A DNA stretch of 64,000 nucleotides from a virus, in IMG/VR virus record IMGVR_UViG_3300001335_000085, positions 1,365-65,364 of that record; one strand, given 5' to 3'. A program made the position numbers and the translations under genes. The notes beneath the pieces are model-generated. The model saw only the letters and a list, made by a program, of their open reading frames with translations. It was not told the DNA's origin and did no database searches. Shown piece by piece: positions 4,511 to 55,860 of the stretch (positions within the stretch are counted from its first letter, which is position 1; each line of letters opens with the position of its first letter).

Positions 4511-5539
4511 ATGAGAACATTTGAAGTGTATGATGAGAACACCAGTATCATGAGAGAAGCTTTACGTAAGCAGATAAAAGAGTATGTGAAAAAATATCAT
4601 GCTGTTAAATCAATACCTATGTTTCACAGGCTCACATATCCTAATGTGATTATTGTGGATACTACCGAATTTTTAGGTAGATGTTCATTTGATGAAAATG
4701 TCTGCACTATACAGATAGCTGAAAAAGTTATCCATGATACTATGTGTGCTGATGTGTTAGGGCATGAGGTAGCACATTTTCTAGACCATAATAAATCGGG
4801 GCATGGTGAAGAATTCAAAGCTATTTGCGCTATACTTGGTGTGCCTACTACAGCCCGTCGCCCTATAGACTGTATCAATACTATTGATACACTACTCACG
4901 AAGATACAAAAACTGTTAGCTCTTAGTGAATCATCGAATGTACATGAAGCAGAAACGGCTATGATTATGGCACGTAAATTGATGCATAAATATGGCATAA
5001 CTGAAGTTTCCCCATCACAAAAGATATGGCGTACCGTTCTTACCGCCTATAGCAACTACACCGCTGAATATAAGACTATCACTAGGATTGTCGCAAAGAT
5101 GACGGGTACGTATATTGTACTTGACAAACAGTATGAGAGTAATTACATTAGAGCGCATGGTACACGTACGCAACTAGAGATAGCGGGATATCTATTTGAC
5201 TATCTGCATACTGAGCTTGCTACACTGTACAAGAAAGCTAGGAAAGAAGGTAATCTACAAGGTAATGCAAAATCAGCATTCTACTATGGCATATTGCGGA
5301 GTATGGATGCACGGTTCAAAGAACAAGACAATACAGAAGGATGGGGATTGGTCGTGTCAAATACGGTAGACGATTTAGTGAAAAAATTCATATATGATGA
5401 ACCGTTGATAACAAGCAAAAGTAAGTCTACTCGTATAGGAAATGTACAGGCATATAACATGGGACAAAAGGCAGGAAAGACACTGCAAATCAGACAAGGT
5501 GTTGCACAAAAGCAAACTGCGCTTTCAATAGGTAATTAA
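4511..5539 (+). CDS. SprT-like zinc metalloprotease domain fused to DUF2786-like domain
   Basis: HEVAH..D....GHG.EF zincin motif; KIQKLLALSESSNVHEAETAM..A.KLM.KY DUF2786 motif. Confidence 0.75.
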   Translation: MRTFEVYDENTSIMREALRKQIKEYVKKYHAVKSIPMFHRLTYPNVIIVDTTEFLGRCSFDENVCTIQIAEKVIHDTMCADVLGHEVAHFLDHNKSGHGEEFKAICAILGVPTTARRPIDCINTIDTLLTKIQKLLALSESSNVHEAETAMIMARKLMHKYGITEVSPSQKIWRTVLTAYSNYTAEYKTITRIVAKMTGTYIVLDKQYESNYIRAHGTRTQLEIAGYLFDYLHTELATLYKKARKEGNLQGNAKSAFYYGILRSMDARFKEQDNTEGWGLVVSNTVDDLVKKFIYDEPLITSKSKSTRIGNVQAYNMGQKAGKTLQIRQGVAQKQTALSIGN

Positions 5540-37689: not shown

Positions 37690-40600
37690 ATGGACAAATC
37701 AGTACAAATACTGTCAGACATCACAGCATACATGAAATATGCAAGATATATACCAGATAAAAAAAGAAGAGAACTTTGGGATGAAACTGTAAAAAGAACC
37801 ATGGATATGCATATTAAAAAGTTTCCAGAATTGAAAGAAGAAATTGAATATGCTTTTTCTTTTGTACAGGAAAAGAAAGTACTTGCTAGTATGCGTTCAC
37901 ATCAGTTTGCAGGAAAACCTATTGAGGTAAATCCTGTAAGGCTCTATAATTGTTCATATGAGAATCTTGACCATCTTGATGCATTTGCAGAAGCAATGTT
38001 TTTGATGTTATCTGGAACAGGTGTAGGTTATAGTGTACAAAAGCATCATGTAAGAAAACTCCCACCTATCCTAGGAGTACAGAGACCAGAAGGAAGACAA
38101 AGAAAGAAAAGATATCTTGTTGCTGATAACATTGAAGGGTAAATAAGACTGCCCTTATAAAAGCTATTTAATTGCTGGAAACCCCTTAGAGGTTAAAACA
38201 CTACAGCATGTCCCGTCAAGGGAGGGTGCGAATGTTTAAAAAGATTTTAACATTGGGCAATCAGCAGCTAAGTTTCGGAGTTAATATATGAAGAATTATG
38301 ACAAAGAAAAAAGTTCAGAGGCCATCCCGAAAGGGAGTAGGGAAGAAATTCCCGAAAAGGTAGCATTGTTTAAATTTTATGTTTTAAAAGACCCAAGAGA
38401 TGGTTTGATAAAATATGTTGGGAGAACAGTAGAAGAAAAAAACAGATTTAGAAAGCATATTTACGAGGCTAAGAAAAATAATAGAAATAAAAGAGAGAGA
38501 TGGATTATTTCTCTTTTGAGAAAGAATTTATTACCTGAACTAGAAGTTGTTTACCAAGAAAAATGTAGCGTAGAAGAAGCTGCAAAAATAGAAAAAATGT
38601 TGGTGAAAAAACTTAGTAAAAGGTTTCAATTGAAAAATGATAATGACAATTACGCTGGTGTTATTTTAAACGGAACCCCAGTTTTTCAATATGATTTAGA
38701 AGGTAATAAAATAAATTCTTTTGCAAATTCAAACCAAGCTATGATTAACATTGGTGTTAAAGATGTAAACATCACTAGATGTTGCAAAAATGAAAATGGT
38801 TATGGTTCAAAAACAGCCGGAGGATTTTTTTGGTCTTTTATAGATTATAAAAAATATCCTCATGAATATGTTTCTAACTGGAGAAAACTAAAAGGAAAAC
38901 CTGTTTTGCAATATGACCTAAAAGGAAATTTTATTGCAGAATTTTTAACCGCAAGAATAGCGGAAAAAGAAACAGGAACTCCTTATAAGAAGATTTCTGC
39001 TGTTTGTAACGGAAGACAAAATAAAACTAATGGTTTTATTTGGAAGTTTAAACAATAAGATATGGTCCAGCCCTTTAAGAAATTTTAGGGGTAAATGCAT
39101 CAGGGTCTGATGCTATAAAAGTTCTTTTGGAATCATACTTTTATAATAAAAGAGAAATAGATTTTGATTTTAGAGATATTAGAGCTAAAGGTACAGAACT
39201 GGTAACATCTGGAGGAAAAGCGCCGGGAGCTGAACCATTAAGAGAATGTATCGTTCAAATTACTTCAGTATTAGAAAATGCTATTGCAGAAAGAGGATTA
39301 GTCACGAAACTAAAGACTATTGAAGCACATGATATTATGTGTTATATTGCTGATGCAGTACTGGCAGGTGGTATTAGAAGAGCAGCTATGTTGGCATTGT
39401 TTTCTTTAGATGATACAGATATGTTAGAATGTAAATTTGGAAATTGGTGGGAAGAAAACCCTCAAAGAGGAAGAGCAAACAATTCAGCAGTTGTTTTACG
39501 AAGTCAGATTACTAAAGACGTATTTATGAAATTATGGGATAAAATAAAGGCATCTGGTTCAGGTGAACCGGGATTTTTCATAAGCAATAGTGAGGAATGG
39601 GGAGCTAACCCTTGTTGTTTTACTGGAGATATGAAATTGTTGACTGTTGATGGTGAAAAGACATTTGAAGAACTAAATAACACACATCCGACAATATGTG
39701 ATATGCACGGTAACAAATCAAAAGGATACGTTTGGTACAATGGAAAAAAAGATGTTATTAGACTTAAGCTATCTGATAAAACAGTAATAAAATGCACCCC
39801 AGACCATAAATTCTTAGTAGATGGTAATTGGATTGAAGCAAAAGATATGAAAGGTAAACGGATAACACAATTAACACCAAATCTACTCAAACAGAAAGCA
39901 CCAATGGTTATTAGTATTAAAGATATAGGTAGACAAGATGTATATGACTTTAATGAGCCAAACACCAATGCAGGTTATGTTAATGGTGCTTGTGCACACA
40001 ACTGTGAGATTTCATTAAGAAGCAATCAATTTTGTAATCTTGTAGAAGTGAATTTTTCAAATATTGAATCTCAAGAAGACTTAAATGAACGAGCAAGAGT
40101 AGCAAGTTTTATTTCAACTCTTCAGGCAAGTTATACAGATTTTCATTATCTCAGAGATATCTGGAGAGATACAACAGAAAAAGATGCGTTGATTGGTGTA
40201 AGTTTAACTGGGGTTGCTTCTAGACATTTATATGAATACGACCTTAAAGAATCGGCTAAAATTGTGAAGAAAGAAAACAAACGAGTAGCAAAGTTGATAG
40301 GAATTAATCCTTCTGCAAGAAGTACTACCAATAAACCATCAGGTACAAGTTCGATTATTCTAGGTACGTCATCAGGTGTTCATGCTTGGTACGATAAGTA
40401 TTATTGGAGAAGGATAAGAGTTGGAAAAGATGAAGCTATATATCAATATCTGTTTCACATATATCCTGAATTGCTTGAAGATGATTATTTCAGACCAGAA
40501 AGTACAGCTATTATTAAAGTACCACAGAAAGCACCGGAAGGAGCAATTACTAGAGAAGAAACAGCTATTGATGCATTGGAAAGAGTAAAATACATGCATG

Positions 40601-40926
40601 AACATTGGATTGATACAGGACATATTAAAGGGATAAACAAAAACAATGTATCTGTTACTATTTCAATAAGAGAAAATGAATGGGAAGACGTAAGTAATTG
40701 GATGTGGCAGAATAGAGATACATATACTGGAATTTCTGTTCTACCTTTTGATAGTGGTTCATATACACAAGCACCATTTGAATCTTGCACAAAAGAAGAA
40801 TATGAAGAAGCTATGCAGTATTTAAGTGCAGTTGATTTGAAGTATATTGTTGAGGAACAGGATAATACTCATCTGCAAAGTGAAGTTGCTTGTTCTGGTG
40901 GTGCTTGCGAAATAAAAAATATATAA
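37690..40926 (+). CDS. nrdJ: class II (B12-dependent) ribonucleotide reductase; exons 37690-38140 and 39104-40926
   Basis: YNC, GTGVG, GG.RR.A, NPC[intein]CEI, FCNL.E, KPSGT, C-terminal ACSGGAC; splicing restores IEGWSDAIK. Confidence 0.9.
38141..39103 (+). mobile_element. group I intron in nrdJ
   Basis: P1 AAGGGT/GCCCTT with U.G at the 5' splice site, AATTGCTGGAA and AATCAGCAG core strands, P7 GGCCA/TGGTC, omega-G 39103. Confidence 0.88.
38288..39058 (+). CDS. intron-encoded GIY-YIG homing endonuclease with NUMOD1 repeats
   Basis: FY.L.DP....KYVG.T...R...H; two PV.QYDL.GN modules. Confidence 0.85.
   Translation: MKNYDKEKSSEAIPKGSREEIPEKVALFKFYVLKDPRDGLIKYVGRTVEEKNRFRKHIYEAKKNNRNKRERWIISLLRKNLLPELEVVYQEKCSVEEAAKIEKMLVKKLSKRFQLKNDNDNYAGVILNGTPVFQYDLEGNKINSFANSNQAMINIGVKDVNITRCCKNENGYGSKTAGGFFWSFIDYKKYPHEYVSNWRKLKGKPVLQYDLKGNFIAEFLTARIAEKETGTPYKKISAVCNGRQNKTNGFIWKFKQ
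39616..40002 (+). mobile_element. 129-aa mini-intein in nrdJ
   Basis: CFTGD..L start, TPDHKF block B, VYD...HN end, Cys +1. Confidence 0.92.
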
Positions 40927-40935
40927 GGATAGTCT

Positions 40936-41385
40936 ATGAAATGCACGTCTAAAGACTGTAAGTATTATGTGTATGATGAATGTATTCGTAAAAATGTAAC
41001 TATAGACAAGGGTGTGTGTCCATACTATAGTACACAAGAACTACATGTATCAGACGTGTTTCACACCCCTATACATGGCGTATGGGGGTTGACCTCAGAA
41101 ACAGGTGAAGAACTAGTAGTAAAAGGGCATTTATTAAATGCTGTGGTTGCGTGGCAGTCACACTATACTATTGTACGTCCTTTACGGGGGCACACACATG
41201 GGCTAGGCACTCCAAAGAAGCAAGGTGTATTTGATGTTACTATGTATCTACGTTTTATAGATAGTGGGATTGCTGGCATGTATTTAGAGGATTTTGTGCT
41301 TGACTATTTAGCACATAGCTATTATACTATACAAAAGATAAACTGCTCAGGGCAATTTGTACACCTAGTAGTGGAGGGAACATAA
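40936..41385 (+). CDS. hypothetical protein with N-terminal Cys cluster
   Basis: C....C.Y....C......I...G.C motif. Confidence 0.65.
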   Translation: MKCTSKDCKYYVYDECIRKNVTIDKGVCPYYSTQELHVSDVFHTPIHGVWGLTSETGEELVVKGHLLNAVVAWQSHYTIVRPLRGHTHGLGTPKKQGVFDVTMYLRFIDSGIAGMYLEDFVLDYLAHSYYTIQKINCSGQFVHLVVEGT

Positions 41386-41554
41386 TGAAATATATCGTAG
41401 AAGTATCAGTATTAATGGATATGTATGTAGAAGCAGTAGATGAATCAACCGCAACTGCATATGTACAAGAAGTGTTAAATAACATACAGGATACAGAGCA
41501 TTGTACTGATGTACATATATTGATGACTGAAGCTTATGGAGAGAAAGCATTATT

Positions 41555-43078
41555 ATGAACATATTATTTAAGTTGTATATACGGTTTATCCGTCCATATA
41601 CAGAAAGGAAATTACAGAAGTTATTCAAAGATGCTAAGGTGTTGGATTCTACTATATGGAATACATATAAATATCTACCATTAAAAGAGTTTGGTGATGC
41701 TGTTAAAAACTATGAATATAAACCTGACCTATTGAACGGTGTTGTAGATTTTGCCTATAATAATCCTAATGTGTTTTTTAGTGAACTAGGTGTGAGTAGA
41801 GATTGTTTTTCTGAAGATACTCCACTAGTAGTCAGACTAGATAAGGCCGATATAGCTGTGATAACTTTTAGAGAAATGTTTTTATATTTTAATCGTGGGG
41901 TTTCTCTAGAAGTTTTAGATGAAACTGGATTAAATTGGATAACTGTACAGAATGTTATAAAAAAAGTTTCAGACAAAGATAGCTATTTATTTTATGGGAA
42001 GAATGGCACATTTACAGTCACTGAAGACCACCCTATTTTTGATGGGACAGAATTTAAGGAAGCGTCAGAAATAGATACAAATCTACCTAGTATTGAGTAT
42101 TTACATGTATTTCAGGATAAGAAGCCTGCGAAAGAAGTAGAAAATACTGATTTATATTGGGCATTGGGGTTTTTTTGTGCAGATGGTTATACAAAATTAG
42201 TCGATAGCTCTCGAAAATTTATTGTGCTGACAAGTACAAATGAAGAATATAGTAATAAAGCATTGCAATTGTTGAATAATGCTTTTGGTAATTGTTTTGA
42301 GTATACAAATTATCCATCTGATGAAGCCGGTAATGTTCGTGGAAATGCTATATTACGTAATAAGCAATATAAAATAGTTTTTAAGGCTAGAACACTTGAA
42401 AAGCAAGACAGAGAAAATGTGTTAAATTATTTTCTACAATATTACGATGATGATAGAAATAAAATTGTACCTACCTTTATTTTTTCGTTATCTAATAATG
42501 CTATCAAACAATTTTTAGATGGGTATTGGTGTGGTAATGGTTACAAGTATAAAGGTGGTATGAATACAGTACATAATTCTAAGAAATTAGCAATGCAGTT
42601 ATCTATACTTTATAAATTGATTGGGTATAAGTTCACATCAATTAAACAAGATGGAGACAAAAAAACATATATACTTGCTAGTTATAAAGAAATGCCGAAA
42701 AATAATACTGGTTTAGGTACAAAAAGAAAGAAAATTAAAACTGGAAAATATGTTTATGACATTACAGTGGATGGGGGTCAATTTTTAGTTGATGGTAGTA
42801 TTGTGCATAATTGTGATGACACCAGTCGTGTGTTTTATCACTATGGACTGCTTAATGGCTATACAGCACAAGAAGTCATAGTGACATCGAAAGATGCAAT
42901 AGCTAAGAAGGCACATGTAGTATGTGTGCTAGAAAAAGATAATCAATATTGGCTATGTGATTATAGTGTCTATGGACCATTCACTTCGTTTGAACGTGCA
43001 GTTGAAAGTATAGTACGTCATTGGTCTAGCTATACTCCAGAGAATTTATTATGGGAACGATATTACAGCATACAGTAA
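41555..43078 (+). CDS. transglutaminase/papain-like Cys-protease-fold protein (171-aa extein) interrupted by an intein
   Basis: Extein reads RD|CDD ... AHVVCV ... WLCDY (Cys-His-Asp). Confidence 0.7.
   Translation: MNILFKLYIRFIRPYTERKLQKLFKDAKVLDSTIWNTYKYLPLKEFGDAVKNYEYKPDLLNGVVDFAYNNPNVFFSELGVSRDCFSEDTPLVVRLDKADIAVITFREMFLYFNRGVSLEVLDETGLNWITVQNVIKKVSDKDSYLFYGKNGTFTVTEDHPIFDGTEFKEASEIDTNLPSIEYLHVFQDKKPAKEVENTDLYWALGFFCADGYTKLVDSSRKFIVLTSTNEEYSNKALQLLNNAFGNCFEYTNYPSDEAGNVRGNAILRNKQYKIVFKARTLEKQDRENVLNYFLQYYDDDRNKIVPTFIFSLSNNAIKQFLDGYWCGNGYKYKGGMNTVHNSKKLAMQLSILYKLIGYKFTSIKQDGDKKTYILASYKEMPKNNTGLGTKRKKIKTGKYVYDITVDGGQFLVDGSIVHNCDDTSRVFYHYGLLNGYTAQEVIVTSKDAIAKKAHVVCVLEKDNQYWLCDYSVYGPFTSFERAVESIVRHWSSYTPENLLWERYYSIQ
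41804..42811 (+). mobile_element. 336-aa intein with LAGLIDADG endonuclease
   Basis: CFSEDT, TVTEDHP, LGFFCADG, FLDGYWCGNG, VYDITV..VHN/C. Confidence 0.92.
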
Positions 43079-50043: not shown

Positions 50044-50637
50044 TTAGTATCCTTGACAGAATCGACTTTTTGGCGTACTGTTATATATTTTATTTCCCCT
50101 TTGTGCTGAGAAATTGTAAATCGAGAAACTTGACGGGGGTGAATCAGCACTCTGATAGACTAAGTATTGGGTGGCAGGGGTGCTGTAAATTAGCTTCCCT
50201 TGCAGATGGCTATTATAATAGCTCTCTTCGTTTCTGCTGTTGCCATATCTATGCAGATGCAAATACCCATTACCCTCACCCTTGTAGTATCCTGAACTGT
50301 TGTAAAACTTGATTCTCCATAAACAAGAGTCTTGATGAATGGTATAGCCAAAACTATTATCATCATTCACTGTAAACCAACTGGAGGAATTCTTAAGTTC
50401 TATCGGACCAACTTTCGTGACCCATGACGAGCCGTTCCAGTATTGAAATGTTAACTGATGGTTTGGTGACCCAAATAACGCATAGTTCCCTTCGAAATAA
50501 AAGCACCAAGAATAACAGCAGATGTATAAATACTTTGTTCCACCATTTGGTGTGAGTGTGTTATCTGCTGTCCATGAGGCATTTACCACATCGATACCAG
50601 CCCCATTTGCATAATTTATACTATCACCTACAGCCAT
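50044..50637 (-). CDS. putative receptor-binding/fibre tip protein
   Basis: Aromatic/Asn/Ser-rich beta composition, coupled to the fibre gene. Confidence 0.55.
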   Translation of the reverse strand: MAVGDSINYANGAGIDVVNASWTADNTLTPNGGTKYLYICCYSWCFYFEGNYALFGSPNHQLTFQYWNGSSWVTKVGPIELKNSSSWFTVNDDNSFGYTIHQDSCLWRIKFYNSSGYYKGEGNGYLHLHRYGNSRNEESYYNSHLQGKLIYSTPATQYLVYQSADSPPSSFSIYNFSAQRGNKIYNSTPKSRFCQGY

Positions 50638-53177
50638 TAGTTAAACACCGCCCCATACAGTTTTGTCGCAGTCACAACACCGCCAGATGCCTTTAGATAT
50701 TCTACACCTGATGAATCTTGGATAATCATACCGTTCATAGCTCCTTGTTCAAATTCCCAATAATCACCAAGAGTGTGCCCATAGGGGGAATCAAATGTTA
50801 TGGTGATGCCATAATCTGTAGTTCCATCATCTAATGTAAACGTTTCTCCAGTATCAAGATATAATTCTGCTGAAAGAAATGCTCCAACTGACCATTTGAA
50901 CCTATCACTAAAAGTGTAAATTAGCGAGTGAACATAAATCTTATCTGACCCCGTATCACAACTAATAAGATTTGTTCCATCAAAAGTAAGACCAGAAGAA
51001 TATATACCGGGGGAATTGAAACTAGAGAGTATAGTACTTGATATACCATCATGAACATAAATCTTATCTGCCCTCGTATCACAACTAATAAGATTTGTTC
51101 CATCAAAAGTAAGACCAGAAGGATATATACCGGGGGAATTGAAACTAGAGAGTATAGTTAAGGTGGTAGATATAAAATTTCCATTTCCCACACCTGTTAT
51201 CTCAGCTTTGAACACATCAGCAACCGAAGCTGCTTGTAGTATAGATAAGTCATCTAATCCAGAACCCGTAAAGGTGGGACCGGAAATAATACCAGCGTCA
51301 TCACGTACCGCAACTCGTGCATCTATAGGTGCATCTTCACCGGTTCTTAATGTTCCCACAACCTCAGCATTACGCATGGTGACCTTACCGGCGATAGATG
51401 AGTGAAATATCTTCTCACCACCGTAAACCATCTTGATACCATCGTTCTTATTGACATCAACCACGAATTGTTTCGTAGGGTCTGTCTCTTCTGGGTTATC
51501 TACTTTTAATGTGTTCACTGTGAGATTATTGATAAACGCTTTATACGCAGCTAAGAATGTAAATGCATTCTCTAATCCTAAATCATCAACTTTATTAGCC
51601 CAATCTTCAGCATCAACAGCACTTGATAAATATTTCCATGCATTGTTAATTTGATTAGCTAACACAGCATTGATAGTACTAGCTTCACTGTACACATTTG
51701 TCGAAACTATAGTGTATGTACTAATATCATAAGATATAACTATTTCACCTATAATAACACCTGTAGTCACGGTCTCTGTGTTATTATATAAACTTTGTGT
51801 ATTTATATCATAGATAGTAGGCTTCACTACACCACCATCTAATACTAGATACACTGTAGTATTATCTTCTTGGAGAGTGAAATCAGTACAATCCACTACA
51901 CCCTTAGGCACTGCAAGATATAACGCTGTATCAGCGCTATTATATATGATTTTACCATCTATATCACCACGAGTGTTATTAAAATAATACCCATGTATAT
52001 ATATACTACCTAATACTTCACTACCTAGATATGTAGCTACATTAGGCTGTATACAATACGTAGTAGTACTAGGCACTACTGAAGAAGGACGGTATGGTGT
52101 AGACTGTACTAATGAGCTTTTTAAGATTTCATTTACATGTATATCTGCATCAACATATCTATATGCTTGAACCCCTACTGTATACCATTTATTTATCACT
52201 ACATTTCTTATAGTATAACTTCTACTAGTAGCATCTATATAACTTGCTTGTTGTATAGTGAACACAGGTGCAGTGTCATCTGTTGCACTATGTTCAAATA
52301 TAACAAATCCATCAATATTACCAGCATCACCAGTATTATCAAATGTCCATATAAATTCAATATCAACAGTACCATCAGCATTTAATGTGTATGTAGAAGG
52401 GGTGGTTATTGCAGGAGTATTTGGCGTAGCACTTATTCTATCATTTCGTGTGTTGAAGTTCACTGCACTAGTATATACTGTATTCCCATCAGGGATATCT
52501 CTAATAGAGTTCTCAACTTCTTCTAAACTAATCACATCAACATAGAATATACCACCAGTAGACTCTAATACCAGAGCTATCTCATCAGTGCCTTCAGGAA
52601 GCTCTGAAGGGGTGTCAGGCGTATTACTACTGTGTTCTACATAATTAGTACCAGTACCTTTTATATAGCCTGTATACGTGTTATATGAAGTCTCCAGTAC
52701 TTCACTACCATCTAACGCCACCTTCACATAATCACTGAGGCTGGTACTTGTCTTACCATTGTATATACCATTCTTATAAGCAACAACAGAAGCATATAAC
52801 GTACCACTACCGTCTGTCTTAGCTTTACATGTCACTTTCTTCAGTATATTAGGTACATAGCTTATAGGAGTACCGAACACTAATGTTTGTGCCCCTGTGA
52901 TTTTCAATGCATATCCAGAACTAGCTGTAGCATCTTTCACTATTTCTATAGTGGAATCTGTGGATTGATTACCGAGTAATTCCACATAATCTACATCTAC
53001 TGTGGTGTCATTCTCAAAGATGATTGCTATTTGTTGATACCCTTCTAAAGAGAGTGCAGTAGAAGCTTCACCAGAGGCTAACGTAAGTTCAGTGCTTTCT
53101 CTAGGGATAGCTATAGGCACAGAGCCGTCTGTAGGTAAATAGTTATCTGCTAATGTGTCATACTTAATTATACTCAT
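50637..53177 (-). CDS. tail fibre/spike protein with FN3-like and beta-propeller-like modules
   Basis: 846 aa, Thr/Asp/Val-rich, Y.VGVQAY FN3-like motif, 41-aa repeats. Confidence 0.7.
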   Translation of the reverse strand: MSIIKYDTLADNYLPTDGSVPIAIPRESTELTLASGEASTALSLEGYQQIAIIFENDTTVDVDYVELLGNQSTDSTIEIVKDATASSGYALKITGAQTLVFGTPISYVPNILKKVTCKAKTDGSGTLYASVVAYKNGIYNGKTSTSLSDYVKVALDGSEVLETSYNTYTGYIKGTGTNYVEHSSNTPDTPSELPEGTDEIALVLESTGGIFYVDVISLEEVENSIRDIPDGNTVYTSAVNFNTRNDRISATPNTPAITTPSTYTLNADGTVDIEFIWTFDNTGDAGNIDGFVIFEHSATDDTAPVFTIQQASYIDATSRSYTIRNVVINKWYTVGVQAYRYVDADIHVNEILKSSLVQSTPYRPSSVVPSTTTYCIQPNVATYLGSEVLGSIYIHGYYFNNTRGDIDGKIIYNSADTALYLAVPKGVVDCTDFTLQEDNTTVYLVLDGGVVKPTIYDINTQSLYNNTETVTTGVIIGEIVISYDISTYTIVSTNVYSEASTINAVLANQINNAWKYLSSAVDAEDWANKVDDLGLENAFTFLAAYKAFINNLTVNTLKVDNPEETDPTKQFVVDVNKNDGIKMVYGGEKIFHSSIAGKVTMRNAEVVGTLRTGEDAPIDARVAVRDDAGIISGPTFTGSGLDDLSILQAASVADVFKAEITGVGNGNFISTTLTILSSFNSPGIYPSGLTFDGTNLISCDTRADKIYVHDGISSTILSSFNSPGIYSSGLTFDGTNLISCDTGSDKIYVHSLIYTFSDRFKWSVGAFLSAELYLDTGETFTLDDGTTDYGITITFDSPYGHTLGDYWEFEQGAMNGMIIQDSSGVEYLKASGGVVTATKLYGAVFN
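50929..51158 (-). repeat. two 107-bp direct repeats, 123-bp period (41-aa blades)
   Basis: 50929-51035 vs 51052-51158 nearly identical. Confidence 0.9.
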
Positions 53178-53396: not shown

Positions 53397-53624
53397 TTAC
53401 CCATACAGCACATCCCTTGCCTGTCGTGTCTCTGCATCGGTCTGTGGATTGTGCAACCGCTTTGCAAAACCTTTCGTCTTGTGACCGTACTTGAACCAAT
53501 CCCATATCTCCTTCCCAACCCCAAACGCCAGTGCCACAAGCCACCCAAAAGGAAGGAATTTCATGAAAATCACGGCTAGGAAGAAGCTCCATAGGAAGTG
53601 GAGTTGCTTGTCGAGGGGTATCAC
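53397..53624 (-). CDS. small membrane protein (DK.LHF...GKE.WD type)
   Basis: Hydrophobic N-terminal half; C-terminus looks chimeric. Confidence 0.5.
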   Translation of the reverse strand: MIPLDKQLHFLWSFFLAVIFMKFLPFGWLVALAFGVGKEIWDWFKYGHKTKGFAKRLHNPQTDAETRQARDVLYG

Positions 53625-53734
53625 GAAAGCTCCTGCTCTGCAAGCAATGCCTCAACCTCTGCTCTCCACAACTGTGGTACATCTTCCAAGGTCATTTCGT
53701 TGTTATTTATCTTGCGTAAGTATAGTTTCGCCAT
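53621..53734 (-). CDS. CD1375/XkdX-like small protein
   Basis: MAKLY...I.....TLEDVP.LWR.EVEALL. Confidence 0.7.
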   Translation of the reverse strand: MAKLYLRKINNNEMTLEDVPQLWRAEVEALLAEQELS

Positions 53735-53867
53735 TTTGCACCTCCGATATAATTTGTGCGAGTTCAAGAATAGCATCCTCCTGCTCTTGGACCTTTGTTT
53801 GCAATTGTGCATTCCTTGTACGCTCATTTCTAAGCTGCTCCAAAACTGTCAATTTTCTAAAAGACAT

Positions 53868-54055
53868 TTAAGCCTCCCATAGTTCTCTATAATATTTATC
53901 CATACTTTGTATGGTGTTATACGAATTCCCATTGCTTACATGAGCTTTCCACGATATATAACTCTCATCCGCCTTCTCTCGACTCATTTTCCCCTCGGCA
54001 ACTAAAGATTTATATTTTTTTAACTTCTTTTTTCTCTTTTTAATGTTTTCTTTAA
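53868..54055 (-). pseudogene. C-terminal stub of a DGR-type reverse transcriptase
   Basis: K..LKK.K.LV.EGKM..E.ADESY.SWKAH...GNSY..I..MD.YY..LW; no RT core or own start. Confidence 0.7.
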
Positions 54056-54072
54056 ATTGATGATTAACGATG

Positions 54073-55860
54073 CTACACAATAACGCAAGCGGGGGCGAGA
54101 CCGTGACTGTTGTAAGCATAGCTAGCACTGCCGTAGCTCAAACCTCCGGAAGTACGAACACCACGAACACCACTAACGTATGAAACGCTAGGTGAACGAA
54201 GCCACCAATAATGGGGAGAACCTGATAACAATTTGATTCTTTCTGCATATATAACTCCGTCATAAAATTCATACACAGACTCGCCAGTGGTAACCCCTTC
54301 ATCGTCGTAGTACCCCAATTCAACTCTTGAGAGTAAAAACGCTTTGTCTTGTACTGTAACTTGACCACCGCCGTCATAAGATGCTAGAGCAACCTTATTC
54401 TCAACCTCTCCCATTACAGCCACGAGTTCAGGGTCAAGTTGGTATAAAAACCCCCCAGTACCTGCGTATGGTGATGGCATGTCATACAACCCTTGTGACT
54501 CCCAATTAAATACAGATGCACTGCTATTCAAAAATTGGCGAAGAGCATTATCAATGGGATTATTTGAGCCGTAACGCATACGCGCATGATTATTAATAGG
54601 GGTGAGTGTGTCTGACCCTGTAGCAGTTGTGACAACAAGCCCAGTTTCAATAGTTGTTACCCTGTCTGCGTTATAAGAAGTAAGAGTGAGTGGAACGTAT
54701 TCATCTCTTGTCACAATGTGTAATATCCCTCCCGCTGGGATTTCAACTGTGGTTGTTACTTGATATTGGACACCCTCGGTTGTAAAAATATGTGTCCCTG
54801 CTGGTAATGCTGTAACAGCGTTATACATTGCTTGTGGTGCTGAAAATTGTGCATTAAATAGGCAATTTTGTGGTTGCAGAGTTAGCGTGTGGGTATACTC
54901 AGAGTCTACAGGAGTGACGCTAGGATGGTCGATTCCTATTACATTCCACACAAATTCAGTGCCATTGTAATCAGCAACAAGCTGGTCGCCAACCATCAGA
55001 TATTTGTCTACAACGCCTGCACGGACTGCCGTCTGTACATCAGCCCATGATTCCAAGGGATTAAATTCTTCCAAAACCTCTATGCGAGTATCCAACGCAT
55101 CGAGATTGCCCTTCACCAACTTCTCACTTGGATAATGCACATCATCAGGGGTGGATTGGAAGGCCGTGAGTTTGTTGGAAGCATCTTCTTTGTCGGCTTC
55201 CAACGTATTGATGCGCTCTTCATGGTCGGTGAGGTTCTCGTTGGTCCAACCGGCGCCTTTGATGACATCCTGTACATCTTTAAGTACTTTCCCTTGGTTG
55301 GCAGAAAGCGGTTTATCGGTGTCTGTTGATGTGAGATTGTCGACAATACCCGCTTGCTTCAAGATGGTACTATCTGCATCCTCGTAGTCTGCATCTTTTT
55401 TACCTGAATCAAGCAGGTTCCCCTCTGCATCAAGTGAAGCAAAATTGCCGGCAGCAGCTCCTGTTACTTTGTCTGCTTTGTCTGAATCAAGTTCTGCAAT
55501 AGCTCCCTTAATATCAGTAGCTTCTACACCACCAACAGGAGTGAATGTTGCATTTTTAGCATTGTCTTTAATACTTTTTAATACAGAACCTTCTGTTGAC
55601 ACATTACCTTTAAGAATATCCTGTGCATCCTTCAATTCTTTAGCTTTATTAGCACTCACAGGTTTATCAGTGTCGGTTGATGTTAGATTATCAATAGTAG
55701 TGTGCTTAGCATATTCTGTAGCACGAGTACTTTCCTTGATAATCTTCATAGAGCTATCTTGTTCAACACCTCCCCATTCATCACTAGTAAAATCTAGACT
55801 AGTGACTTCATCAGGTACACCGGGTGATATTTCATTTTGACTATAGCGCTTTACTCCCAT
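54073..55860 (-). CDS. tail protein with DUF6273-like C-terminal domain (DGR target type)
   Basis: Two DNLTSTDTDKP.SAN..K.LKD repeats; ends WWLRSP...G..PAC. Confidence 0.8.
   Translation of the reverse strand: MGVKRYSQNEISPGVPDEVTSLDFTSDEWGGVEQDSSMKIIKESTRATEYAKHTTIDNLTSTDTDKPVSANKAKELKDAQDILKGNVSTEGSVLKSIKDNAKNATFTPVGGVEATDIKGAIAELDSDKADKVTGAAAGNFASLDAEGNLLDSGKKDADYEDADSTILKQAGIVDNLTSTDTDKPLSANQGKVLKDVQDVIKGAGWTNENLTDHEERINTLEADKEDASNKLTAFQSTPDDVHYPSEKLVKGNLDALDTRIEVLEEFNPLESWADVQTAVRAGVVDKYLMVGDQLVADYNGTEFVWNVIGIDHPSVTPVDSEYTHTLTLQPQNCLFNAQFSAPQAMYNAVTALPAGTHIFTTEGVQYQVTTTVEIPAGGILHIVTRDEYVPLTLTSYNADRVTTIETGLVVTTATGSDTLTPINNHARMRYGSNNPIDNALRQFLNSSASVFNWESQGLYDMPSPYAGTGGFLYQLDPELVAVMGEVENKVALASYDGGGQVTVQDKAFLLSRVELGYYDDEGVTTGESVYEFYDGVIYAERIKLLSGSPHYWWLRSPSVSYVSGVRGVRTSGGLSYGSASYAYNSHGLAPACVIV

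Follow-up and report, generated by a model that had tools for sequence, protein, structure and literature searches.

A probable relic of a diversity-generating retroelement behind the tail-fibre gene of an uncultured phage

Anatomy of the locus

The tail-fibre gene considered here lies in a stretch of 64,000 nucleotides—the window, i.e. the whole piece of DNA that was analysed—corresponding to bases 1365-65364 of the 85,009-bp IMG/VR virus record IMGVR_UViG_3300001335_000085, for which CheckV gives a completeness of 100% and the source of which is an uncultured tailed phage. The gene ends in a variable region (VR) of the type written by diversity-generating retroelements (DGRs), and the C-terminal tail of a DGR-type reverse transcriptase (RT) follows directly behind its stop codon. 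The features that make up this arrangement are given below, the related loci used for comparison being cited, where necessary, by their handles (L002, L007 and the like); TR denotes the template repeat of a DGR.

54073-55860, minus strand: tail-fibre gene of 595 residues in the list of open reading frames (ORFs), with phage fibre repeats at the N-terminus and a DUF6273 domain for receptor binding at the C-terminus
54073-54207, minus strand: DGR-type VR, 135 nt including the stop codon, starting at the TGG TGG of the WW (54207) and running from WWLRSP to ACVIV-stop
54073-54102, minus strand: GC-rich conserved 3' end of the VR (GGTCTCGCCCCCGCTTGC...TAG), resembling an initiation of mutagenic homing (IMH) site, as delimited by alignments of the VR and TR ends of relatives
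54061-54072, minus strand: 12-nt spacer CATCGTTAATCA behind the stop codon, 12/12 identical to the spacer between VR stop and hairpin in L007 and retained from the intact locus
54054-54066, minus strand: deletion junction; the homology to the L007 spacer ends at 54061 and that to the RT runs from 54053-54059 downward
53868-54059, minus strand: C-terminal RT stub of 61-63 codons plus the stop, open in frame, its stop abutting the ATG of the next gene

Concerning the VR, its adenine content is 14%, compared with 31% in the rest of the fibre gene upstream, and 37 of its 45 codons are of the NNY type (Y, pyrimidine), the corresponding share in the rest of the gene being 55%. The protein itself ends with WWLRSP...GLAPACVIV-stop. 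Because the VR's own TR is gone, the TRs of L005 and L007 were used as a proxy for it: the mismatches of the window VR fall on 24 of the 36 adenines of the L005 TR versus 19 of its 90 other positions (odds ratio 7.5, p 2e-6), and they are likewise enriched at the adenines of the L007 TR (odds ratio 4.7, p 3e-4). Taken as sequence evidence, the adenine depletion, the NNY pattern and the mismatches at TR adenines support a DGR origin of the VR. The IMH-like sequence at its 3' end is preserved and differs little from its counterpart in relatives with a live DGR; the TR to be expected for this VR would carry adenines at the variable positions, would be rich in AAC/AAT and would end in ...CCCCCGATT.

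The stop codon of the fibre gene (TAG, 54075-54073) is followed by the 12 nucleotides CATCGTTAATCA and then by the frame KENIKKRKKKLKKYKSLV...YYRELWEA-stop. This frame (53871-54071) aligns to residues 384-449 of the L005 RT ORF with 62% identity (E 2e-21) and to residues 287-348 of the 349-residue RT of L007 with 63% identity (E 1.1e-22), matches more than 20 further RT C-termini as well as PHROG 1423 'Reverse transcriptase' (E 1.6e-7), and shares 63-69% identity with the C-termini of the intact RTs of relatives. A promoter search revealed no sigma-70-like site within the stub or near it. Look-ups with the 83-residue stub ORF and with a 132-residue ORF upstream yielded no identical record, and a protein search with the stub retrieved only the ORF of the L002 type.

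The other parts of a DGR were sought in the whole 85-kb genome. BLAST with the VR matched the VR alone, and a sliding scan of both strands that tolerated changes at adenines returned again the VR alone; no RVT_1 match was found, the full RT of L007 recovered only the stub (the equivalent of its residues 287-348), and the Avd protein of L007 gave no match at E <= 10. Thus, of the features of a DGR, the window retains the signature of adenine mutagenesis in a VR at the 3' end of the gene and the conserved GC-rich, IMH-like VR end, with no hairpin after it; the RT catalytic core, the TR, avd and the hairpin behind the VR are all missing, so that the window holds the relic of a DGR and not a DGR. 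A second DGR acting in trans from elsewhere in the same genome was considered and is ruled out, since no TR, other RT or avd is present across the 85 kb.

Three small genes follow the stub.

53703-53867, minus strand: 54-residue gene, following the RT in intact relatives (synteny with L005, L007, L002 and L004)
53621-53734, minus strand: 37-residue gene of the CD1375 family (NF040910, E 1.3e-8, 34.4 bits against a cut-off of 22.5, match 1-34 of 34; phrog_1382)
53397-53624, minus strand: 75-residue ORF for a small hydrophobic protein, putatively a holin-like membrane protein (GC 0.50)

The first of these has no match in Pfam, NCBIfam or PHROGs, and the L002 counterpart of the third matches Phage_holin_5_2 weakly. 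The GC content of the small genes is 0.45-0.50, compared with 0.36 for the genome.

The anatomy had been read correctly in the original prediction, which was made from the letters of the window alone. The NNY-rich VR ending in WWLRSP...GLAPAC, the absence of TR, avd and RT core from the window and the higher GC of the CD1375-like and small genes behind the junction are as it described them. The segment behind the stop is the DGR-type RT C-terminus that it proposed (62-69% identity to RT C-termini), although the switch into the RT tail occurs 12-19 nt after the stop and leaves 61-65 codons, rather than about 20 nt and about 60 codons.

Intact and decayed relatives

Homologues of the fibre protein are numerous, and several lie on contigs long enough to show their neighbours. 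It should be mentioned that the related loci were recovered with an alignment-based query, a single fibre protein used as the query having given none. In L005, L007 and L089, the order is fibre gene with its VR, short spacer, GC-rich hairpin, avd, TR, RT, 54-residue gene, CD1375-like gene and small membrane-protein gene. Relatives of the same gene order thus carry an intact cassette exactly at the position of the junction, which makes a deletion covering avd, TR and the greater part of the RT—the event that the original prediction had postulated—the straightforward reading; the same three loci bear out its suggestion that the downstream genes resemble those flanking DGRs, and they establish that relatives of this VR family do carry TR and RT.

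Compared with L007 and L005, the window lacks about 1.6 kb, comprising the hairpin, avd, the TR, the region of the spacer RNA and about 285 codons of the RT. The hairpin, exemplified by GCCCCC-GCAA-GGGGGC with its 4-nt loop 3' of the spacer in L007, has a predicted stability from -8.4 to -11.4 kcal/mol in L005, L007, L012, L013 and L019, whereas the 63 nt 3' of the window VR form no stable structure (-0.9 kcal/mol). The avd genes of the relatives encode 136-137 residues and were recognised by PHROGs (phrog_3206 'Avd protein of DGR', E about 1e-15; 1.9e-15 for L005), a Pfam search of the same genes having recognised none; the RTs of the intact relatives carry RVT_1, which is on record for the RT ORF of L005. 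With regard to the origin of the junction, TAATCA(G) is present at both homologous breakpoints in L007, which, at the level of sequence, hints at a microhomology-mediated deletion. The ungapped protein alignment, however, places the RT bases elsewhere than this microhomology needs and the true ancestor is absent from the comparison, so the microhomology is only suggestive.

The DGR is alive in close relatives. The VR and TR of L005 differ by 16 mismatches at adenine sites and 5 others, and the differences within the repeats of L005, L007 and L089 are nearly all located at TR adenines. As a positive control for activity, L005 was compared with L089: with an overall identity of about 95%, the two have the same TR, and of the 20 sites at which their VRs differ, 19 are TR adenines, from which the activity of the DGR follows. 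Like the DGR of phage BPP-1 (mtd VR - avd - TR - brt), the prototype of the mechanism, the locus in the window has a tail fibre as its target, the VR at the extreme 3' end of the gene and a GC-rich, IMH-like VR end, and its intact relatives share with BPP-1 the order of VR, hairpin with a 4-nt loop, avd, TR and RT as well as the VR/TR differences at TR adenines. It differs from BPP-1 in that the VR and the final 61-65 codons of the RT are all that is left—hairpin, avd, TR and RT core being gone—and in that the target domain is DUF6273 instead of Mtd. The intact loci of uncultured phages and Clostridia prophages (L005/L089, L007, L020 and about 40 others) resemble the window in a homologous fibre domain (57-82% amino acid identity), in the downstream 54-residue, CD1375-like and small membrane-protein genes and in an RT tail 63-69% identical to the stub, but they have kept the whole cassette.

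The presence of RT, avd and TR was screened in 47 loci (39 from IMG/VR, the window and 7 fetched earlier) and in a further 40 from bacterial genomes. About 21 loci are intact in each set, and about 10 of the former and about 12 of the latter have no cassette. Three loci—L019, L041 and L098—represent, like the window, independent partial deletions of the cassette, however, with other breakpoints. L019 (5990-6180) has kept the hairpin GCCCCC-GCAA-GGGGGC and 44 codons of the RT tail, without avd or TR. In L041 (5600-6700), avd, the TR and the spacer behind the TR are intact and the RT is reduced to its last about 55 codons, the VR having 16 differences from its TR at adenine sites. L098, from Ruminococcus intestinalis NSJ-71 (about 5155-5280), retains just the first 42 codons of avd, 3' of a homologue of the fibre domain, and no RT or TR was found within 4 kb. 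In L004, the VR is followed directly by the 54-residue gene, with no stub, while in L011 (1338-1581) and L013 (6050-6270), an unrelated ORF of 77 residues with no family match stands in place of the cassette; in L013, a GC hairpin with a GGAA loop is still found after the VR-like end. The decay of the DGR is thus recurrent in the DUF6273 fibre family, the loss of the hairpin together with the retention of the RT tail being confined, among the decayed loci examined, to the lineage of the window and L002.

Based on the above results, the locus is very likely a dead DGR, the VR of which is no longer rewritten by the phage's own machinery. Its ancestor would have carried the fibre gene with the C-terminal VR, the GC-rich hairpin, avd, TR, RT and the genes for the 54-residue, CD1375-family and small membrane proteins, in this order. 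A single deletion of about 1.6 kb, reaching from 12 nt past the fibre stop to about 61-65 codons before the RT stop, would have taken, along with the entire RT catalytic core, the hairpin, avd and the TR, and the adenine-poor, NNY-rich VR would be the imprint of past mutagenic retrohoming, by which it presumably no longer changes. The RT tail would then be a pseudogene remnant, perhaps kept because the next gene starts right at its end. Since nothing in the 85-kb genome replaces the lost parts, the phage cannot rewrite its own VR.

A mosaic fibre gene and the fate of the variable region

The closest fibre protein, P0003, is encoded by L002, L003 and L010—three Joint Genome Institute (JGI) contigs from other samples—and is only 66% identical to that of the window. 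At the nucleotide level, this relationship is a mosaic.

53553-54118, minus strand: 3' mosaic patch of 566 nt, 99.5% identical to L002, L003 and L010 (blastn, alignments)
54119-54958, minus strand: receptor-binding cassette of 840 nt, containing most of the VR, without a blastn match to L002, the part that can be aligned being visibly divergent
54959-55482, minus strand: second mosaic patch of 524 nt within the fibre gene, 98.5% identical to L002 (blastn)

Starting in the VR, 45 nt before its end, the 3' patch runs through the junction, the stub and the 54-residue and CD1375 genes into the membrane-protein gene, of which only the first about 24 codons fall within it. As this patch carries the junction in both the window and L002, the scar is common to them by descent. 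The cassette between the patches is nearer to L005 (76% at the nucleotide level) and to the protein P0010 (82% at the amino acid level). It may be inferred from these alignments that homologous recombination has swapped either the cassette or the segment with the scar at some time after the deletion, one crossover having taken place in the GC-rich, conserved VR end. The junction-bearing segment could have moved between phages or, alternatively, the receptor-binding cassette could have been exchanged between the nearly identical flanking patches, the crossover lying at the 3' end of the VR. It should also be noted that the contigs L003 and L010 end exactly at patch boundaries (window positions 53553, 54118, 54959 and 55482); these ends suggest that phages of the window type and of the L002 type co-occur, causing branches in the assembly graph.

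An assembly mis-join at the junction has, nevertheless, a negligible probability: hypervariable or shared segments often break or mis-join metagenome assemblies and the contig ends do coincide with patch boundaries, but the same junction occurs in the 85-kb contig, in the three JGI contigs and in the Logan contig L088 (k=31, present in two samples), which is 100% identical to the window over 2,976 nt (54104-51129).

The original prediction also held that the deletion had locked the receptor-binding variant, unless a DGR elsewhere in the genome acted in trans. Its proviso is settled by the search of the complete genome described above, and the part of the claim concerning the loss of the phage's own machinery stands; that the VR is frozen is no more than likely. 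In favour of it, the genome has no DGR machinery, the hairpin is lost, and the L002, L003 and L010 contigs, from three samples, have identical VRs. A protein search with the receptor-binding part revealed no nearly identical partial proteins with other VR alleles. Exact searches with the junction, and with a 33-mer that is specific to the window and lies immediately upstream of the VR, gave no match in viral and metagenome contig collections, which may lack nearly identical records.

Several observations weigh against a frozen VR or against the simple history outlined above. The identity of the three VRs gives weak support, the contigs being 100% identical and their sample identifiers consecutive. 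If an exchange followed the deletion, the VR seen today may differ from that which the phage had at the time of the deletion; it may have been written by the DGR of another phage and imported later. The frame of the stub has no stop codon, which fits a recent deletion, a retained function being also possible. Finally, of 119 31-mers taken as a sample from 53600-54700, two sequencing runs with the locus, X1 and X2, contain 96% and 95%, respectively; of the 16 that fall in the VR stretch 54062-54215, they contain only 11, so that the missing ones probably all belong to this stretch; with about five words missing, the differences are estimated to be confined to approximately 54105-54114. Into this interval fall the two variable positions (54105 and 54111) that also distinguish the L002 allele, and the first base of the contig L088, 54104, lies exactly one base 3' of the last variable one. 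Phages that are identical elsewhere may thus differ from one another in the VR, the possible causes being another crossover point, selected point mutations or the activity of a DGR in trans.

Among the alternatives to a frozen fibre tip, a change of specificity after the loss of the DGR by homologous recombination of cassettes or short VR tracts with relatives is the one to be taken most seriously, although it can be put forward only tentatively. The two patches of 98.5% and 99.5% identity flanking a cassette that lacks a blastn match to L002 and is nearer to L005 and P0010 speak for such an exchange, the 3' patch beginning within the last 45 nt of the VR and the ends of L003 and L010 resembling graph branch points of co-occurring types. 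Only one exchange is, however, documented, the alignments fixing neither its direction nor its date, and the linkage of short reads across common patches can be chimeric, even if the 85-kb and Logan contigs agree downstream.

It is rather unlikely that the phage, despite lacking a DGR of its own, still renews its tip, through a DGR in trans or by short-tract gene conversion at the 3' end of the VR, and that the RT tail has gained a role for the downstream genes. Were the tip still renewed, the earliest sign of this would lie in the loss of k-mers local to the VR and in the contig break directly at the last variable base.

As to a DGR in trans taken alone, it seems improbable that the orphan VR is still diversified by the intact DGR of a co-infecting relative or a host prophage, with the IMH-like end as the target. 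In its favour, this end is undamaged and almost the same as in relatives whose DGR is live, the same studies contain related phages (the runs X3 and X4 hold parts of the stretch), and the k-mer shares and the break of L088 point to heterogeneity at 54105 and 54111 in otherwise 100% identical genomes. These two positions are, however, the very differences of the L002 allele, so a different crossover point accounts for them just as well. A matching TR is not known, and the sister lineage bearing the stub exhibits no VR variation across three samples. Moreover, the hairpin found 3' of the VR in every intact relative is deleted in the window. In BPP-1, this hairpin/cruciform is required for efficient homing, only weak residual activity remaining without it (PMC3240598), and its deletion thus argues against an efficient service by a DGR on another genome.

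It is similarly doubtful that the RT tail has been kept for a function of its own, be it as a small protein or as a translated leader coupling translation to the 54-residue gene. Three independent deletions (window/L002, L019 and L041) have their endpoints in the final 44-61 RT codons, for which chance would account with a probability of about 0.005 as a rough estimate if breakpoints were even along the gene. All three stubs are open to the native stop, and the tail of L019 is apparently fused in frame to the putative ribosome-binding site and ATG of avd. On the other hand, the downstream genes are present without any stub in L004, L011 and L013, the stub of the window has no promoter-like site, the identical stubs of the window and L002 are uninformative with regard to selection, and the known events number only three.

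Fibre domain, genome setting and meaning of the relic

The C-terminal part of the fibre protein (residues 430-594) matches Pfam DUF6273 (PF19789) with an E-value of 1.7e-16 and 61 bits against a cut-off of 23.5, the N-terminal repeats matching Phage_fiber_rpt (E 2.8e-14); a DUF6273 search of the genome showed that no other gene has this domain (63.4 bits for the fibre gene). The target domain was modelled with AlphaFold from 25 sequences, resulting in a mean pLDDT of 73.8, with values below 50 in the VR segment. For residues 282-595 (33-346 in the numbering of the model), the top structural match was the N-terminal region of the IgA peptidase from Thomasclavelia ramosa (9qa6; Z 13.0, rmsd 3.6, 188 residues aligned), to which the DUF6273 region was also related in a profile search (E 1.4e-4). 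TvpA (2y3c), the variable protein of a DGR, reached a Z of only 3.5, the VR being modelled at low confidence, and the comparison of the model by Foldseek and VIA-align gave no clear match to a C-type lectin, which does not mean that the fold differs.

Concerning the rest of the genome, a block of replication genes on the plus strand (SNF2 helicase, DnaB-like helicase, family A polymerase, RtcB and Pif1-like helicase) is accompanied by a block of tail genes on the minus strand, including a J-like central fibre protein of 1269 residues (phrog_31, E 5.6e-59). The family A polymerase is at best about 24% identical to its matches from cultured phages, which infect Bacillota, and the relatives of the fibre domain in bacterial genomes are nearly all found in Clostridia, both metagenome-assembled genomes and isolates. 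The runs X1 and X2 come from different studies and are labelled as freshwater and aquatic metagenomes. Runs from digester, manure, soil and groundwater gave small k-mer shares (0.06), on which no conclusion is based here. As additional observations, a gene resembling ribonucleotide reductase with a match to an intein-splicing domain and an adjoining gene with a LAGLIDADG domain occupy 39127-43078, and a second large fibre-like gene (846 residues, DUF7359) is located 3' of the small genes at 50637-53177 on the minus strand; the latter contains a nearly perfect tandem duplication with a motif of about 45 residues (ILSSFNSPGIY.SGLTFDGTNLISCDT..DKIYVH).

In itself, the relic is ordinary, the loss of the DGR core with retention of the target having already been described. 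In isolates of Treponema denticola, target genes of DGRs were left without RT or TR and were read by the authors as remnants (Nimkulrat et al. 2016, PMC4891356). In both cases, the genes for the variable proteins outlast the lost core components; the targets in T. denticola are, however, bacterial and chromosomal, often far from the cassette, whereas the relic in the window belongs to a phage and its deletion scar, with the RT tail, directly adjoins the VR. What goes beyond the known is modest, i.e. a recombination mosaic sharing the scar and the hint of residual variation in the VR.

The locus is a clean natural example of the death of a DGR, its scar being mapped to within about 10 nt. For annotation, the lesson is that a VR-like signature alone does not mean an active DGR. 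The host range of phages is the textbook use of DGRs, which are, to our knowledge, the only natural system of targeted protein hypermutation. Live, partly deleted and cassette-free loci coexist in this fibre family, making it useful for learning how often and when phages drop hypermutation and what replaces it—in the lineage of the window, apparently, the exchange of receptor-binding cassettes at the conserved end of the VR.

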